This document shows positions 23,603 to 32,637 of a stretch of DNA of 36,300 bases, one piece after another. The notes under the pieces were generated by a model. It was given only the letters and a program-made list of their open reading frames with translations, did no database searches and was not told the DNA's origin. The stretch comes from a virus. The translations under genes and the position numbers were made by a program. Where the stretch lies: IMG/VR virus record IMGVR_UViG_3300045988_181135. The stretch is one strand, 5' to 3'. The first letter of the stretch is position 1, and every line of letters begins with the position of its first letter.

Positions 23603-25013
23603 CGGCGGGCTGCGCGGGCTCCGCCGCCTGGGTGACGCCCGCCATCAGGTCGAGCGCCGCCGAGCGCGTCACGTTGCGTCTGATCTCGGACGAGACGTTG
23701 CGCACCTCGTCGTCGTCGAGGCCGTTGAGCCGCCAGAAGGTCGGCGTGCCGGCGAAACCCTCGACCGCCGAAGCGAGCTTGATGGAGCTGTCAGTCTGCT
23801 GGGCCAGCGTCGGCATGGCGGGGTTCAGGAAGTGGACGGACACGCCGCAGGCGTCCTCGGCCTCCTCGTAGGAGCACCCAAGTTCCGTGGCAATCGCTGC
23901 GGTCGCGGCATTCGCCAGCGCCGCCTTGGCCTCGCGGATGAAGCTCTTGCACTTGAGGATGAGCGGCTCGTTCTCGGCGTAGATCGCCTCGGCGGAGCTG
24001 GGGTTGTCGCTCATGATGCCGAACTGCCCCACGTGGATGCCGGTCGCTGCGCTCATGCGCTTGCACAGGTTGCCGAAGTGCTCGGTCATGGGCTGCATGC
24101 TCGGCTGAGTGAGCTGGCCGAACTGCGGAATCGTGCCGTCCTCGGTCTTGGTGACCTCGAAGATGGAGCCGATGAAGGCGCTCCATTTGGTCTTGTCGGC
24201 GAACGCGTCTCCGTCGGTGCCCAGCAGGTACTTCTGCGTGGACGCGGCGAACGCGGCGGCGATCTCCTCGTTGACGTTGGCGCGCATGGCGCAGTCGATG
24301 TTCCAGCGCACCTCGGAGTTGATCCTGGACACGCCGAACGGTCGGTCGTCGTCGGGGTTGTGCGGCATGACGAACATGGGCACGGCGCCCAGGCCGTGCT
24401 CCACGTACTCCGCCGCCCACTCGTTGCGGCGAACCTCGCGGATGCGCACCATGCGGTCCGGCAGCATCACGTTGACCCAGTCCGGGCGGTCCGTGGGCCG
24501 CCCGCGGTCCTTGGCGAAGGAGACGACGAACATGCCGGAGGACAGGCACTCGTGGACGTCGTCCCAGATGCCCGTGCACAGGGTCGGCGGGTACGCCGAG
24601 ATGCGGGCGTGCCCGTCCTCGTCCGCCGTCACCACGAGCATGGAGAAGCAGTACTTGAGTGCGGAGTTGACGGCCTTGCCGACGCGCGTGGCCATCTTGT
24701 TGCGCTTGGCCACGGAGGTGAGCAGGCCGTCGAAGTCCTCATCGTCGGGGCACGTGAACCCGTCGAAGGCGATGTGGTCGCGCATGACCTCCACGCACTT
24801 GTATCCCCAGCCGCACGCGACCTCCAGGTCGCGCAGCGAGTCGGGCACGGCGATGCCGAGGTCCTTGAGCATGTTGCGCGCCTCGTAGTAGTCCGAGCGC
24901 AGGAGGTTGCCCTTGTAGTGGGTCTGCCAGCTGTTGAGCAGGCAGCGCACCGTCTCGCGGTCCTCCTCGAGCAGGCCGTCGGCGGACGCCACGGCGTAAG
25001 GTATCGAGATCAA
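23595..25013 (-). CDS. Portal protein (SPP1 Gp6-like, 472 aa)
   Basis: It lies immediately downstream of TerL and has typical size and sequence style. The TTG start overlaps the TerL TGA. Confidence 0.85.
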   Translation of the reverse strand: MISIPYAVASADGLLEEDRETVRCLLNSWQTHYKGNLLRSDYYEARNMLKDLGIAVPDSLRDLEVACGWGYKCVEVMRDHIAFDGFTCPDDEDFDGLLTSVAKRNKMATRVGKAVNSALKYCFSMLVVTADEDGHARISAYPPTLCTGIWDDVHECLSSGMFVVSFAKDRGRPTDRPDWVNVMLPDRMVRIREVRRNEWAAEYVEHGLGAVPMFVMPHNPDDDRPFGVSRINSEVRWNIDCAMRANVNEEIAAAFAASTQKYLLGTDGDAFADKTKWSAFIGSIFEVTKTEDGTIPQFGQLTQPSMQPMTEHFGNLCKRMSAATGIHVGQFGIMSDNPSSAEAIYAENEPLILKCKSFIREAKAALANAATAAIATELGCSYEEAEDACGVSVHFLNPAMPTLAQQTDSSIKLASAVEGFAGTPTFWRLNGLDDDEVRNVSSEIRRNVTRSAALDLMAGVTQAAEPAQPADD

Positions 25014-26503
25014 GTGACCCTCGCCTTCATTCCGGGTTTTCTCTTCGATGTGTTAAGCGCGAGCAGCGCCAGCCCCGCGGCCTCGATGGGCGCGGCGTTG
25101 TCGCCGCCGAAGCCCCAGCCGCCGCCGGAGCCGATCTTGCGCTTGGGGGATGTCTCGGCGGAAAGGTCGAGCGCAGGGCACGCAATGTGCGTGACCGAGC
25201 CCGCCTTCGCGCCGGACGAGATGAGACTTGCGGCGGTCACGGCCTGGTCGGTGCTCGGGCGCAGGATGTAGTCCTTGGGCATGCCCATGCCCTCGAGCTT
25301 GTCGCACAGGGCGCCGGCGCCTGCCTTGCCGTCGATGGCGACGCAGGCGTACCTGCCCGCCCTCGCGGCGATCCAGTAGGCCAGCCAATCCGTGCTGGGC
25401 TCCGGGTCCTTGCAGAAGGGAAGCTCAACATGCACGGTCGGCGAGCCGGGCGGCCGCACGGCGCACGCCACGGCGACGGTCGAGCCGTCGGCGCTGAATC
25501 TCACGCCGGCGCAGATCCTGCAGTCGGCGTTCAGCTCGGGGCCGCTCTCCACGAGGCACTCGCCCCATGCGTCGGAGCCGATGATGGGCTTCTCCACCTG
25601 GTTCTGTGGGGGCAGCCAGTAGCCCAGGTACTCCTGGGCGGCGCCAAGCTCGTCCATGTCCTTCATGCCGGTTCGGATGGCGCGGATGTCGGCGTGGTAG
25701 CCGAGCGAGGGCATGACCTCCGGCCAGCGGCTCTCGTCCCAGATGTCGCCGACCTCCTCGACGCCGTACTCCAGCCAGAGCAGATCGGACGCCTTCTCGC
25801 CGCCCTCCCATGCCTGCCGCCGGAGGTTCTTGAACACCTCGGCGGGGTTGCCGGCGCGGGTCGGCGTTCCGGCGTACACGATCATCAGGTTGTGCTTGGC
25901 GCCGGACGTCGTCGTCGGGTTGATGACCTGGGTGTGGATGCCCGTGAGCTCCTGGGCCTCGTCGTATATGACGATGTCGAAGGAGAAGCCCAGGCGCGAG
26001 GACTTGGTTCTCGTCGAGAACTGGATGACGCCGCCGGAGCTGAACCGCATCCATTCCTGGCCGGTCTGGGAGCAGACCTCGACCAGGAGCTTGCGCCAGC
26101 GCGGGATTCCCTCGGACGTGTCGCCGACACGGCGGCCGAAGATCTTGCGGAAGCGGTCGACCATCTCCATGGTCGTCGAGTAGTTGTGCTCGGTCCAGAG
26201 CACCTTGTAGCCGGCCAGCGCCGCCATGACCGCGACCCACACGATGATGTCGACGGACTTGCCTTGCTGTCGCGGGATGGAGATGCCGACACGCGGGTGG
26301 ACCCACTTGCCGCTCGCGTCCACGGCGCCGATGTCGTGGGCGAGCTGCTCCTGCCACGGCACGAGCTTGTATCCCATCGTCGGGGCGAGCTCGACCGCGA
26401 GGGAGCCGATGGACCTCTCGTAGGGCTGGACGAGGCGAAGCCTCGGCTTAGCCGAGGACGTCGCGCAGGACCGAGACGGCGTTGATGATGACATCGTCGC
26501 CAC
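25010..26503 (-). CDS. terL: Terminase large subunit
   Basis: Walker-A-like IPRQQGKS and an ATPase/nuclease layout, sitting after TerS. Start is uncertain: 26503 overlaps TerS by 56 nt, and the alternative is ATG 26377. Confidence 0.85.
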   Translation of the reverse strand: MATMSSSTPSRSCATSSAKPRLRLVQPYERSIGSLAVELAPTMGYKLVPWQEQLAHDIGAVDASGKWVHPRVGISIPRQQGKSVDIIVWVAVMAALAGYKVLWTEHNYSTTMEMVDRFRKIFGRRVGDTSEGIPRWRKLLVEVCSQTGQEWMRFSSGGVIQFSTRTKSSRLGFSFDIVIYDEAQELTGIHTQVINPTTTSGAKHNLMIVYAGTPTRAGNPAEVFKNLRRQAWEGGEKASDLLWLEYGVEEVGDIWDESRWPEVMPSLGYHADIRAIRTGMKDMDELGAAQEYLGYWLPPQNQVEKPIIGSDAWGECLVESGPELNADCRICAGVRFSADGSTVAVACAVRPPGSPTVHVELPFCKDPEPSTDWLAYWIAARAGRYACVAIDGKAGAGALCDKLEGMGMPKDYILRPSTDQAVTAASLISSGAKAGSVTHIACPALDLSAETSPKRKIGSGGGWGFGGDNAAPIEAAGLALLALNTSKRKPGMKARVT

Positions 26504-26897
26504 CGTCCTCCCCAGCCCCCTCTATTCGTTCAATCTGCTCGAGCGTCTCGCGGTACTCCTTGGCGAGCCGGGCCGCCTGGCTGGGCTCGGCGTCGTATAG
26601 CTGTCGCTCGATGACCTGCCGCACCCACCGGAGCCTCCCGAGCGTGTCCTGGCGGCCGTCCGGGCCGTCCGCGGGGGGCGCCGAGACGCCCGCGCCCACG
26701 GACTCCCCCGTGGACTCGCCGGTCGCGATCTCGCCGCTCTCCTTCATTCTCTTGATGAGGGCGCACACGCCCGAGCGCGACCGCTTGAGCTTCTTCGCGA
26801 TAGCCGCAGGTCCGAGCGCCGGGTACGCGTTTCTGACGAACTCCCGCTCGTCTGCGGTCCAGGGCTTGCCCCTCGGCTTCGTGGACTTCGTGGACAT
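26448..26897 (-). CDS. terS: Terminase small subunit (HTH N-terminus, 149 aa)
   Basis: ATG 26897 lies 8 nt after GGGAGG. WTADEREFVRNAYPALGPAAIAKKLKRSRSGVCALIKR is an HTH, followed by a coiled C-terminus. Confidence 0.75.
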   Translation of the reverse strand: MSTKSTKPRGKPWTADEREFVRNAYPALGPAAIAKKLKRSRSGVCALIKRMKESGEIATGESTGESVGAGVSAPPADGPDGRQDTLGRLRWVRQVIERQLYDAEPSQAARLAKEYRETLEQIERIEGAGEDGGDDVIINAVSVLRDVLG

Positions 26898-27005
26898 TCC
26901 ATGCACCTCCCGGTATGGACTCGGTTTCGGGGCCTGCGCAAAAAAGGCGCAATGCCGTGGGGCGAGCCTTCGGCCCCGGGGAGGGGGCCATCCCCCAGGG
27001 TCGGG

Positions 27006-27320
27006 TCACCATGGCAGCGAGGTCGAGCAGCCGACGTCGCGGGGGCGCGGCGATATCGAGCCGTTGAGCGCGGCGAGGCTCTTGTTGCCGCGCCGCTCGT
27101 TGCAGATCCGGTGGGCCGGCGCGACGTTCGCGCGGTCGATGGGCGAGCCGCCCTTGGACACGGGCACGATCTCGTCCACCTCGAAGCTCATCGGGTCGCC
27201 CGCGGGCAGGTCGTAGTCGATGGCCATGCCGCAGATGTGGCATGGCAGCCCCTGCGCCTTGAGCCAGGCGCGCACCTGCCGGCGGGCGTGGCCATTGGCG
27301 TAGCGGGTCTTGGTGGCCAC
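27006..27320 (-). CDS. HNH endonuclease (104 aa)
   Basis: GTG 27320 follows GGAG. CHICG...EVDEIVPVSKGG...APAHRICNERRGNK is an HNH motif. The track ORF 27006..27596 over-extends. Confidence 0.85.
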   Translation of the reverse strand: MATKTRYANGHARRQVRAWLKAQGLPCHICGMAIDYDLPAGDPMSFEVDEIVPVSKGGSPIDRANVAPAHRICNERRGNKSLAALNGSISPRPRDVGCSTSLPW

Positions 27321-27322
27321 GC

Positions 27323-27523
27323 CTAGCGCTCCACGGGAGAGCGACCCCGGTTGGCCATGCACTCCTCGAGCCCCGCGTAGCGCAGACGCTCGACGGCTTT
27401 GCCGGCCCCCTTGCACTTGCGCCCGCCCGCGCGGCGGGCGATGCCCAGGGCGCGGCGGAATGCCCACGCCATCACGGTGCCGTACCTGTTGGCGGCACGG
27501 ACGATAGCCTCGCGTGTGACCAC
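27323..27523 (-). CDS. Small basic hypothetical protein (66 aa)
   Basis: GAGGTGG RBS upstream and high G/C3. Its TAG lies 2 nt before the HNH GTG. Confidence 0.5.
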   Translation of the reverse strand: MVTREAIVRAANRYGTVMAWAFRRALGIARRAGGRKCKGAGKAVERLRYAGLEECMANRGRSPVER

Positions 27524-27683
27524 GGACCCACCTCATTACGTTGTCGTTCCATAGAAAGGCCGGGGTCCCTGAACTGCTGAAGGGAACCCCGGCCACTCAT
27601 CTGTGCTTCCACGCACATCCGACCCGCACACCGCGCGGGCGGCGCTGCGAATCGACACCCTAGTTATATCCCAATCGCAACGC

Positions 27684-27788
27684 GCAACGGCACGCAATCG
27701 CGCGCAATTGTCGGCAATCGTATGCAATCACGCGCAATTGTCGGCAATCACATGCAATAGTTGGCAATCACACGTAATGACATGCAAT
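27684..27788. repeat. Helically phased decamer array (GCAAT every 10 bp, 11 registers; 30-bp higher-order repeat)
   Basis: G(C/T)AA(T/C) starts at 27684, 27694, 27704, 27714, 27724, 27734, 27744, 27754, 27764, 27774 and 27784. CGCGCAATTGTCGGCAATC is duplicated at 27701-27719 and 27731-27749. Confidence 0.9.
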
Positions 27789-27797
27789 AGCGAACCA

Positions 27798-27832
27798 AGA
27801 GAAAGGCCCCGACCGCACATGGCGATCGGGGC
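27798..27832 (-). terminator. Intrinsic terminator after hicB
   Basis: The minus strand reads GGCCCCGA-tcgccatgtgcgg-TCGGGGCC followed by TTTCTCT. Confidence 0.7.
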
Positions 27833-27861
27833 CGACATGCTGACGCGAACCAGCACTTGTA

Positions 27862-28314
27862 TTATACGGCGACGGGAGCCTCTTTCGGGCGCCCAGCCTT
27901 GGGTGAATCGGCGAGTCTGGCCTCGACGGAGGCCTTGGACACCATGCGCTTTGTGCCGTCCCTCCACGAGTCGAGCAACCCCGCGCCTATCAGCTGCGAC
28001 ACCCTCGCCGAGCTGACGCCGAGCATGCGGGCGGCATCTGCGGCAGTGACGGCGGGAATGTCACCGAGCTCGCGGCTGACGGCGATGGCGATGATCTTGC
28101 CCCCGTTCAGTGGCTCATGGCCAAAGTCGGGCGCGGGAAGGTCGACCCCGCCCATGAGGTGATCGTCGACCATGCAGGCGAGGTAGTCGGCCGCGCTCGC
28201 GACGGCATCGTTCAAGTCGGACCCGAACGTGCCGCCTCCTCCGAGCGAACCGCACGGCACGGCATCGACCATGCCTCCAGAATCAAAGAATTCGAATTCC
28301 CATACGTAAACCAT
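27862..28314 (-). CDS. hicB: HicB-family antitoxin with C-terminal HTH (150 aa)
   Basis: The N-terminus MVYVWEFEFFDSGGMVDAVPCG has the HicB-like fold signature. The C-terminal HTH is TAADAARMLGVSSARVSQLIGAG. It lies directly downstream of hicA with an AAAGGAGA RBS. Confidence 0.7.
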   Translation of the reverse strand: MVYVWEFEFFDSGGMVDAVPCGSLGGGGTFGSDLNDAVASAADYLACMVDDHLMGGVDLPAPDFGHEPLNGGKIIAIAVSRELGDIPAVTAADAARMLGVSSARVSQLIGAGLLDSWRDGTKRMVSKASVEARLADSPKAGRPKEAPVAV

Positions 28315-28365
28315 TCACGTCTCCTTTACGTGGGCGATGCAAGACGTAGCCCCAAAGGGGCGGGG

Positions 28366-28536
28366 CTAACGAAGCCCCGCCTGTCTCAGAATCCTCTTGG
28401 CTATCTGGTCCTCGATCTCCCTGTGGCGCTTCACCAGCACGAGTTTGTCGCCCTTGACGAACTTCTCGTGGTTGGTGCCGCCTTTGGAGATAAAGCCGGC
28501 TTCCTCGAGGATGCGGACCAGTTCGCGTCTCTGCAT
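28366..28536 (-). CDS. hicA: HicA-family mRNA interferase toxin (56 aa), absent from the ORF track
   Basis: Translation is MQRRELVRILEEAGFISKGGTNHEKFVKGDKLVLVKRHREIEDQIAKRILRQAGLR. GAAGGTGA RBS upstream, and the start codon reads CAT at 28534-28536 on the + strand. Confidence 0.75.
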   Translation of the reverse strand: MQRRELVRILEEAGFISKGGTNHEKFVKGDKLVLVKRHREIEDQIAKRILRQAGLR

Positions 28537-28614: not shown

Positions 28615-29067
28615 TTATATCTCGGCAGCTCCTCGCCCTTGTCGCGCACGGGCGAGGCCGGTGAGGTCCACCCAGTCAACAGCCGCAGACAGGTCTGCCT
28701 GTATGGACCTCACCGACACCCCGAGCGCCCCCGCGATCTCCTGCAGCGTGCGGTCCTCGCAGTAGCGCAGCTCCAGCACGTCGCCCCAGCGCTTGCCGGG
28801 GTTGGCGGAGCGCACGCCCGCGCAGAGCTCGCGTCCGCGCTCCACTTCGCGTCGAAGCTCGGACAGCTCGGCGCCACTGCGGCGCTCGTAGTCGATCCGG
28901 TCGTCGGTGGACCTCATGAAGTCCGTGCCGTGCGCGCCCTTGCCCACGGCGTCGTAGCGCTGGGCGCGCACCTGCTCGCGCGCCTGCATCGACTCGATGA
29001 CCGCCAGGCGGCGGTCGATGCTGCGCTGAGCGGCCCGTACAGTCTCCAAATATTCACGTGCATCCAT
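28615..29067 (-). CDS. Sigma-70 region-4-like HTH protein, candidate late-gene activator (150 aa)
   Basis: WGDVLELRYCEDRTLQEIAGALGVSVRSIQADL is an ECF/r4-type HTH. It lies between the early genes and the packaging module. Confidence 0.65.
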   Translation of the reverse strand: MDAREYLETVRAAQRSIDRRLAVIESMQAREQVRAQRYDAVGKGAHGTDFMRSTDDRIDYERRSGAELSELRREVERGRELCAGVRSANPGKRWGDVLELRYCEDRTLQEIAGALGVSVRSIQADLSAAVDWVDLTGLARARQGRGAAEI

Positions 29068-31915: not shown

Positions 31916-32637
31916 GCCGACTCACCCAGCTCCCGCTCGAGGGCGGCGATGACGTCGTCCTCGGTCTCGGCGGGCTTCCACACCGCCGCGCGCTCGACCT
32001 CCTGGGAGGTCTGCCCGCCGCGGGCCTTGCGCTCGGCGTCGTAGCCGCGCTCGCGGTCAGACCAGATGCGGGCGACCGGCTCCCACTTCGCGATGGGGAA
32101 GCCCTGCCTGGTCCAGCCGTTGGACTCGTAGTAGTCGAAAAACTTGCTGGCGCTGCCGCGCAGGCAGTTGGCGGCGAAGTACGCCTCGACCTCCTCGAGG
32201 GTCGGCGGGACGAACTCGGCGCCCCCTCCCCCTTCGTTTTCACAATCTGAGGGGTTAATCCAGACTCCTAACTCCTCTTCCCCTTCCTCTTCCTCTTCGC
32301 TTGCGCGTTTGCTTTCCGTTTTGCTTGCGCTTTTGCTTTCCGTTTTGCTTGCGCTTTTGCTTTCCGTTTTGCTTGCGCGTTTGCTTTCTGGTTTGCTTGC
32401 GGCTCCGCTTGCTGCGCTGCCACGGCTCAGCCCGCCCTTCCTTCCGGCCTCCGCCCTGGCGCGGCTGTTCTCGAGGACCGGCATGATCAGCGTGATGGCC
32501 ATCCTCTGGGCGTCGGTGCGCGGCTCGGGCACCTCGCCGGTCACGAGGTAGCGAACCATCATGCCGAGCAGCTCGTTGCTCTCGCGCCTGTTGCCGAGGC
32601 ACAGCGCGCCCTCGACGAGGGAATCAAGTATCGTCAT
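31912..32637 (-). CDS. DUF6291-like / replication-organiser-like protein with an internal SKTESK(S/R)A repeat (241 aa)
   Basis: ATG 32637 lies 8 nt after GGAGG. The N-terminal LVRYLVTGEVPE...NSRARAEAGRKGG and the C-terminal EVEAYF...FFDYYESNGW...WR are reminiscent of phage DUF6291-type proteins; this is from memory. Confidence 0.5.
   Translation of the reverse strand: MTILDSLVEGALCLGNRRESNELLGMMVRYLVTGEVPEPRTDAQRMAITLIMPVLENSRARAEAGRKGGLSRGSAASGAASKPESKRASKTESKSASKTESKSASKTESKRASEEEEEGEEELGVWINPSDCENEGGGGAEFVPPTLEEVEAYFAANCLRGSASKFFDYYESNGWTRQGFPIAKWEPVARIWSDRERGYDAERKARGGQTSQEVERAAVWKPAETEDDVIAALERELGESA
32299..32402. repeat. 24-bp tandem repeat, 4.3 copies, in frame inside 31912..32637
   Basis: GCTTGCGC(G/T)TTTGCTTTCCGTTTT units start at 32299, 32323, 32347 and 32371, with a partial copy at 32395. 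Confidence 0.9.

Follow-up and report, generated by a model that had tools for sequence, protein, structure and literature searches.

What is the function of a strictly periodic array of short direct repeats in the non-coding gap upstream of the packaging genes of a prophage? To address this question, we analysed the window, a whole stretch of 36,300 nucleotides (IMG/VR virus record IMGVR_UViG_3300045988_181135), together with related loci collected via the large terminase (TerL). This stretch is a prophage of Collinsella (Coriobacteriia), of which sequence-identical copies are found in one 2.2-Mb genome and in one viral contig, and a blastn search against isolated phages returned nothing related at the DNA level. 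A sequence-only reading had proposed three candidate roles for the array, namely a recognition site for the small terminase (TerS) of the pac/cos accessory type, a late-promoter activator array and a replication-origin iteron set. We consider it highly probable that the array is the operator of a single late promoter, bound by a late activator resembling those of the Ltr super-family. This second role is supported by the co-variation of the repeat core with the recognition helix of the regulator, by the phasing of the array with a -10-like box and by an Ltr-like arrangement of the locus.

All genes of the region lie on the minus strand, and the order of transcription is regulator, hicA and hicB-like genes, terminator T1, array, TATAAC box, leader, 66-aa gene, HNH, TerS and TerL. 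The features are as follows.

28615..29067, minus strand: putative late regulator, 150 aa, with an N-terminal helical hairpin and a C-terminal sigma-70 region-4-like helix-turn-helix (HTH)
28536..28366, minus strand: hicA (Pfam HicA_toxin)
28314..27862, minus strand: hicB-like HTH_17 gene (Pfam HTH_17)
27797..27833, minus strand: terminator T1, GGCCCCGATCGCCATGTGCGGTCGGGGCC and TTTCTCTTGG, called by the terminator scan (27833..27805)
27684..27788, minus strand: array of eleven 10-bp units arranged head to tail, each reading nnATTGCnnn on the coding strand; proposed sites of the regulator
27671..27683, minus strand: spacer with a last unit that is degenerate or out of phase, GCGTTGCGATTGG, which varies with array flavour among relatives
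27656..27670, minus strand: conserved box GATATAACTAGGGTG, containing the -10-like hexamer TATAAC (27668..27663)
27524..27655, minus strand: structured leader with hairpins H1 (27655..27619), H2 (27617..27602) and T2 (27594..27558), the last followed by UUUCU (27557..27553)
27323..27523, minus strand: first late gene, 66 aa, pI 11.5 (phrog_34586, unknown function)
27006..27329, minus strand: HNH endonuclease, packaging accessory (Pfam HNH; phrog_338, E = 9e-27)
26907..27005, minus strand: HNH-TerS intergenic element, GGGGGATGGCCCCCTCCCC ... GGCATTGCGCCTTTTTTGCG, conserved in relatives, candidate cos region
26448..26906, minus strand: TerS-like protein with an N-terminal HTH, assigned by position and weak HTH matches
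25010..26503, minus strand: large terminase TerL (phrog_9, E = 7e-41)

On the plus strand, G[CT]AA[TC] occurs in 11 consecutive registers that begin at 27684, 27694 and so on to 27784, exactly 10 bp apart; given the minus-strand orientation of every gene in the region, the motif is functionally read as ATTGC. The first register is GCAAC (27684), followed by eight copies of GCAAT (27694-27764), GTAAT at 27774 and a further GCAAT at 27784, giving nine GCAAT, one GCAAC and one GTAAT. Within the 10-bp register the columns G5, A7 and A8 are invariant (11/11), C6 and T9 are each kept in 10 of the 11 units, and one extra GCAAC lies out of phase at 27677. With a plus-strand motif density of 0.0017 per bp, about 1e-26 runs of 11 would be expected by chance, and not one of 20,000 local shuffles contained a run of more than 2. 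The spaced pair RTTGC-N5-RTTGC was found 8 times in the window, each time within the array, compared with 0.19 expected, and the array is the sole run of this kind in the window. Three periods (10, 20 and 30) were reported by Tandem Repeats Finder, with 2.2 copies and 91% matches at 30 bp, and the 19-mer CGCGCAATTGTCGGCAATC is present twice, at 27701 and 27731. The array has a G+C content of 49.5%, the intergenic region one of 57.7%.

Thus the recount, the density estimate and the shuffles bear out the sequence-only reading in its claim of 11 registers at exact 10-bp spacing, and both the 30-bp higher-order repeat and the location of the array between the hicB terminator and the block of small gene, HNH, TerS and TerL hold as well. 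Its further claim that the spacing equals exactly one helical turn does not, as the spacing is 10.0 bp and the repeat of relaxed B-DNA is about 10.5 bp. Because of this shortfall successive sites would drift around the helix by about 17 degrees, which amounts to about half a turn across the whole array, and a protein coat occupying all sites would need either to follow a shallow helix or to overwind and wrap the DNA. The spacing of exactly 10 bp is kept in all lineages tabulated for promoter geometry, a constancy that points to a spacing constraint set by protein-protein contacts, and it is reasonable to suppose that binding would be cooperative along one face of the DNA.

The suggestion that related phages be searched for the same phased motif proved fruitful, as more than 50 related Collinsella prophage loci carry an array of 5-13 units at the equivalent position. 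Among related loci the array has a constant end on the side of the late genes, and its length varies by single units. The prophages of the window flavour (L005-L113), whose TerL proteins are 95-100% identical, have 8-13 units about 1.2 kb upstream of TerL; this spread at near-identical TerL indicates frequent slippage or unequal exchange, by which 10-bp units would be gained and lost fast. Three unit flavours occur within the clade (ATTGC[G/C], ATTGCAC and ATTGCAG), and the arrays of more distant relatives also have a 10-bp period, with 2-14 units and cores that are quite dissimilar. Altogether, analogous arrays were found in at least 13 lineages, and they begin at the stop codon of the regulator gene where no insert is present. 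The approximately 40 bp located 3' of the array, including the box, are almost invariant among 46 distinct leader sequences from 55 related loci.

In every lineage a -10-like hexamer (TATAAC, TATAAA, TATACC, TACAAC and similar) follows the array on its 3' side. The distance from the start of the last core to this hexamer is 18-20 bp in 10 of the 13 lineages, and in two further lineages the last core lies one helical turn farther away, at 27 and 30 bp. The promoter scan did not find a canonical sigma-70 pair of -35 and -10 elements. The conserved box is unique in the window, as is the array, and one array with one box is what would be expected for a single late promoter. A point against the promoter reading is that the hexamer of the window, TATAAC, is without the final T of the usual consensus. 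From the position of the box we predict a transcription start near 27657-27655, which would place the array at about -31 to -131. Upstream of the array, the strong terminator T1 is conserved in relatives both with and without hicAB and would end the early or hicAB transcript just ahead of the array.

The regulator matches the Pfam families Sigma70_r4_2 (27.7 bits, cut-off 25.7) and Sigma70_r4 (26.2 bits, cut-off 24.1) as well as phrog_36 'transcriptional regulator', and its predicted recognition helix is SVRSIQADLSAAV. The AF2 model (mean pLDDT 88) agrees with this assignment and has helices at residues 3-41, 50-88, 94-103, 108-115 and 119-136, of which the first two form a long N-terminal helical hairpin, followed by a C-terminal three-helix domain. 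Foldseek aligned the C-terminal domain only; its matches were the -35-binding domains of ECF sigma factors, and the whole-chain E-values were not significant. Foldseek and a sequence search of solved structures thus gave only weak matches, all to sigma region 4, and none for the N-terminal hairpin. Region 2 is missing, so that the protein does not constitute a full sigma factor. With a pI of 6.6 it is not basic, unlike the staphylococcal Ltr proteins; the homologs in L038 and L035 have values of 5.7 and 6.4. Models of RinA, ArpU and DUF1492 gave no detectable match to it. The non-basic pI and the absent RinA, ArpU and DUF1492 matches count against an Ltr-type reading. Because a protein of 150 aa with a pI of 6.6 falls outside the small, basic (pI > 8) type, the regulator would be a variant that works like the Ltr system rather than a plain member of it.

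To relate the regulator to the array, we compared predicted recognition helices with repeat cores. Within the clade the helix allele matches the core flavour one-to-one in 54 out of 54 loci, as listed below.

Helix SVRSIQAD: core ATTGC[G/C], 16/16 loci
Helix SVRSVNSD: core ATTGCAC, 16/16 loci
Helix SVRSVHSD: core ATTGCAG, 22/22 loci

In addition, 12 further helix/core pairs were found. Distant homologs of the regulator range from 26 to 70% identity, and those at 45-70% were traced to their contigs (L174-L180).

L038 and L046: core TTTTGKC, 6 units
L044: core TGASGCG, 6 units
L040: core TGCCGGG, 5 units
L110: core ATGRCCCG, 4 units
L035: core TGAGCAC, 2 units
L174: core ATTGCCGATG, 10 units, helix SVRSVTAD
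L175: core TTCGCA, 14 units, helix SVRQAQDD
L176: core TTGCGCG, 6 units, helix SERTVCGD
L177: core CTTCCCG, 7 units, helix TDRQAKAD
L178: core YTGCAGG, 7 units, helix SERQAHAD
L179: core TAGTACGGAA, 4 units, helix SESYAKLC
L180: core AAGTACG, 3 units, helix SESYAKTC

Every helix that begins with SVRS pairs with ATTGC, and both SESYAK helices share GTACG. Physical linkage partly explains why a gene and its adjacent site co-vary. In the window, L178, L040 and L110, inserted genes part the regulator from the array and the pairing holds nonetheless, which argues against linkage alone.

We therefore propose that the array serves a late activator, in the following manner. The 150-aa regulator would be produced at the end of the early operon, and its sigma-region-4-like HTH would recognize the ATTGC core in each 10-bp unit. 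The N-terminal hairpins of neighbouring regulators would touch one another, giving a cooperative coat on about 100 bp of DNA, on roughly one face. The promoter-nearest unit, about 20 bp upstream of TATAAC, would come to lie near -30, where a normal -35 element is absent, and we infer that the array-bound regulator recruits or positions host RNA polymerase at the -10-like box and so activates the promoter. Transcription would then cross the structured leader and continue through the small gene, HNH, TerS and TerL as well as the virion genes.

The leader itself bears on how this switch might operate. The 136 nt that begin at the predicted start and reach the first codons of the small gene fold into three hairpins with an MFE of -68.5 kcal/mol (z = -4.1), and out of 200 shuffles none was as stable. 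The T2 hairpin is located about 30 nt upstream of the start codon of the small gene, and a comparable hairpin with a U-run is present in L038, L044, L040, L110, L035, L041 and L174-176; most lineages have such a hairpin ahead of the first late gene. Searched against Rfam, the leader matched no family. We also observed that the leader (27524-27655 of the window) is conserved across the clade, and more so than the flanking genes. Plain activation leaves a terminator-like hairpin between the promoter and the first late gene unexplained, and this counts against it; T2 may be a structure for mRNA stabilisation or processing, or may point to antitermination of the Q type.

In the latter case the array would load a Q-like antiterminator: the regulator would join the polymerase at the TATAAC box and carry it past T2, at which transcripts would stop when the regulator is absent. 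The order of promoter-like box, hairpin with U-run and first late gene recurs in many lineages unrelated in sequence, and in lineages without T1 no terminator other than T2 separates the regulator gene from the late genes. Furthermore, the rinA-terS region of 80alpha likewise has its repeats upstream of a terminator hairpin, the mechanism of RinA must exceed direct contact according to the authors of that work (PMC3152322), and the regulator weakly matches phrog_79 'anti-termination protein Q-like'. However, the phrog_79 match is confined to the HTH, the U-tract of T2 is weak and T2 was not called by the terminator scan, and in L178-L180 the array and box are present with no clear terminator-like hairpin in the leader. 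On balance we hold antitermination to be an unlikely explanation; if it were true, the array copy number (8-13 in the window flavour) would tune when, or how strongly, the late switch operates.

Repeated sites near packaging genes that organise an oligomeric DNA-binding protein also include the lambda cosB R sites and SPP1 pacL/pacR. In a TerS recognition site (a cosB or pac accessory), the HTHs of a TerS ring would each bind one unit and the DNA would wrap the ring, positioning TerL and HNH for cutting. The array does lie upstream of the packaging genes, and 11 units of 10 bp would be close to the circumference of a 9-11-mer TerS ring, as judged from published ring structures. Such sites must, however, match the DNA-binding domain of TerS, and mosaic relatives contradict this candidate role of the sequence-only reading. 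The regulators of L038 and L046 are 99% identical and their arrays are identical, with TerS proteins of only 36% identity. Conversely, L046 and L044 have TerS proteins that are 99% identical and regulators that are 73% identical, and their arrays are different; likewise, in L038 and L035 TerS is 97% identical, the regulator 26% identical, and the arrays differ. Across all three array flavours of the clade TerS is 97-100% identical. Moreover, the TerS helix RSRSGVC.L is common to the window, L038, L035 and L040, the cores of which are ATTGC, TTTTGKC, TGAGCAC and TGCCGGG, respectively, and in L178-L180 the arrays precede a different late module. As far as the compared sequences tell, the core changes with the recognition helix of the regulator and not with TerS or the small protein, and the mosaic test thus marks the array as a probable cis element of the regulator rather than a TerS site. 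In this respect the array differs from the lambda and SPP1 sites, as it is independent of TerS and follows a transcription regulator.

The 99-bp gap between HNH and TerS (26907-27005) is a better cos candidate than the array. It contains a G/C-rich stretch and the element GGCATTGCGCCTTTTTTGCG, and an HNH-TerS 20-mer is kept in 37 viral contigs, including relatives with just 63-68% TerL identity. Contig ends gave no cos signal, as 0 of the 37 viral-contig loci with the element end at the site. The TerL family is common in actinophages and includes that of Rhodococcus phage Sleepyhead, whose linear complete-genome record has the small gene and HNH last and TerS and TerL first; no array comparable to that of the window was found upstream of the small gene/HNH pair in Sleepyhead. 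Most likely, the cos site would fall within this HNH-TerS gap, which is situated downstream of the array at a distance of about 700 bp. We reject the TerS/cos reading of the array on the mosaic comparison together with this better cos candidate, and regard it as very improbable.

Other candidate binders encoded nearby were considered as well. The 66-aa basic protein was rejected, as its versions in L046 and L044, the arrays of which differ, share about 90% identity (hand count), and it is missing from L178-L180, in which the arrays are still there. HicB was rejected since many relatives without hicAB have arrays. The ribbon-helix-helix-like protein of L040 and L110 is unlikely to be the binder, as the two share a KQVAVRFYP stretch and have different cores.

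The remaining proposal of the sequence-only reading, an iteron set at a replication origin, or alternatively a curved-DNA element that acts independently of protein, is hardly credible and finds no support: iterons are often tandem and helix-phased, and TT/AA steps every 10 bp are able to curve DNA, but no initiator gene lies beside the array (it is flanked by the late regulator, hicAB and the packaging genes), the array has 49.5% G+C without an AT-rich unwinding stretch, it occurs once and travels with the regulator and the late genes, always between them and phased with the -10-like box, and the GC-rich cores of other lineages (TGCCGGG, TTCCCG, TGCGCG) without A-tracts show that curvature is not the shared property.

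The preferred reading, a late-promoter operator bound by the regulator, resembles a known kind of phage switch that has been defined by experiment. The Ltr super-family comprises RinA, ArpU, LtrA (Sigma70_r4), LtrB (DUF1492) and LtrC, which are encoded just upstream of terS; specific activation requires the direct repeats that lie immediately distal to the gene of the activator, and these repeats also suffice for it (PMC3753634). Different Ltr/repeat modules precede otherwise identical packaging regions, and the C-terminus of RinA co-varies with the RinA repeats (PMC3753634). The window shares with these systems a small regulator encoded at the end of the early genes, a sigma-region-4-like fold at the C-terminus of that protein, direct repeats distal to the gene, the swapping of repeats and regulator as a module and the co-variation of C-terminal residues with the repeats. 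Known Ltr members are basic (pI > 8) proteins of about 130 aa with 2-4 repeats of about 7 nt, and the RinA site is located >155 bp from the mapped start (PMC3753634, PMC3152322). In contrast, the regulator of the window is near-neutral (pI 6.6), 150 aa long and has a long N-terminal helical hairpin, and its repeats form a strict 10-bp tandem array abutting the -10-like box. In the 80alpha rinA-terS sequence we found a pair of TGGCAGT boxes, spaced 11 bp apart, that directly follows rinA, and a terminator hairpin that precedes terS by about 45 bp.

The closest parallel in layout is S. aureus phage Phi13, in which four direct repeats (-107..-42) lie at the 3' end of ltr or immediately beyond it, followed by a TATA box, the start, a small gene of unknown function, an endonuclease (HNH), terS and terL; both repeats and TATA box are required, and one Ltr-dependent promoter (P23) drives the late genes (PMC13123087). 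The order of the elements is the same as in the window. The two differ in that Phi13 has four repeats and the window 11 contiguous 10-bp units (2-14 in relatives), and in that their hosts belong to different phyla and the regulators are without detectable sequence similarity. Alt of the lactococcal phage TP901-1 is reported to bind a series of direct repeats from -76 to -32 of the late promoter, upstream of terS (cited in PMC3152322 and PMC13123087). Its nearest site extends to the -35 region, which is also what we propose for the array of the window; its four repeats are imperfect and the protein belongs to an unrelated family of narrow distribution. The window differs from the known systems in the unusually large and variable number of strict head-to-tail 10-bp units, the non-basic regulator and the host phylum.

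Our reading would extend the Ltr-type late switch, so far studied in phages of Firmicutes, to prophages of Coriobacteriia, common Actinomycetota of the human gut, and it gives a conspicuous non-coding array a proposed role. Furthermore, the approximately 15 natural pairs of recognition helix and 5-7-bp core, with their common 10-bp spacing and the same distance to the -10-like box, could serve as a specificity table for a sigma-region-4-type domain and could supply mutually orthogonal activator/promoter pairs for use in gut Actinomycetota. In addition, as copy number changes rapidly (5-14 units), the effect of site number on late-promoter output can be tested directly.

The interval between the regulator and the array looks like a recurrent insertion slot, occupied by hicAB in the window and L178 and by other genes in L040 and L110. 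In the window, hicAB (27862..28536) is an inserted accessory cassette that separates the regulator gene from the terminator and array and does not belong to the switch; in relatives of flavours B and C without hicAB, the regulator is followed directly by the same terminator and array. A hicA/hicB(HTH_17) pair is also present in L178 (3541-4213) in the same regulator-array slot, next to a regulator of only 55% identity. L040 (3590-3775) and L110 (2501-2890) encode directly upstream of the array a small, possibly ribbon-helix-helix-like protein (..KQVAVRFYPAEADIWEWL..), for which no Pfam match was found. Downstream of the array, two tRNA-Ser genes (GCU and CGA anticodons) lie between the promoter hairpin and the small gene in L035 (3708-3892), and also in L036 and L105. 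In L110 (2962-3804), a 280-aa gene without a Pfam match lies between the array, box and hairpin and the small gene, and from this position it would be expressed from the late promoter. Elsewhere in the window, a 24-bp tandem repeat with 4.3 copies and 94% matches is located at 32299-32401.
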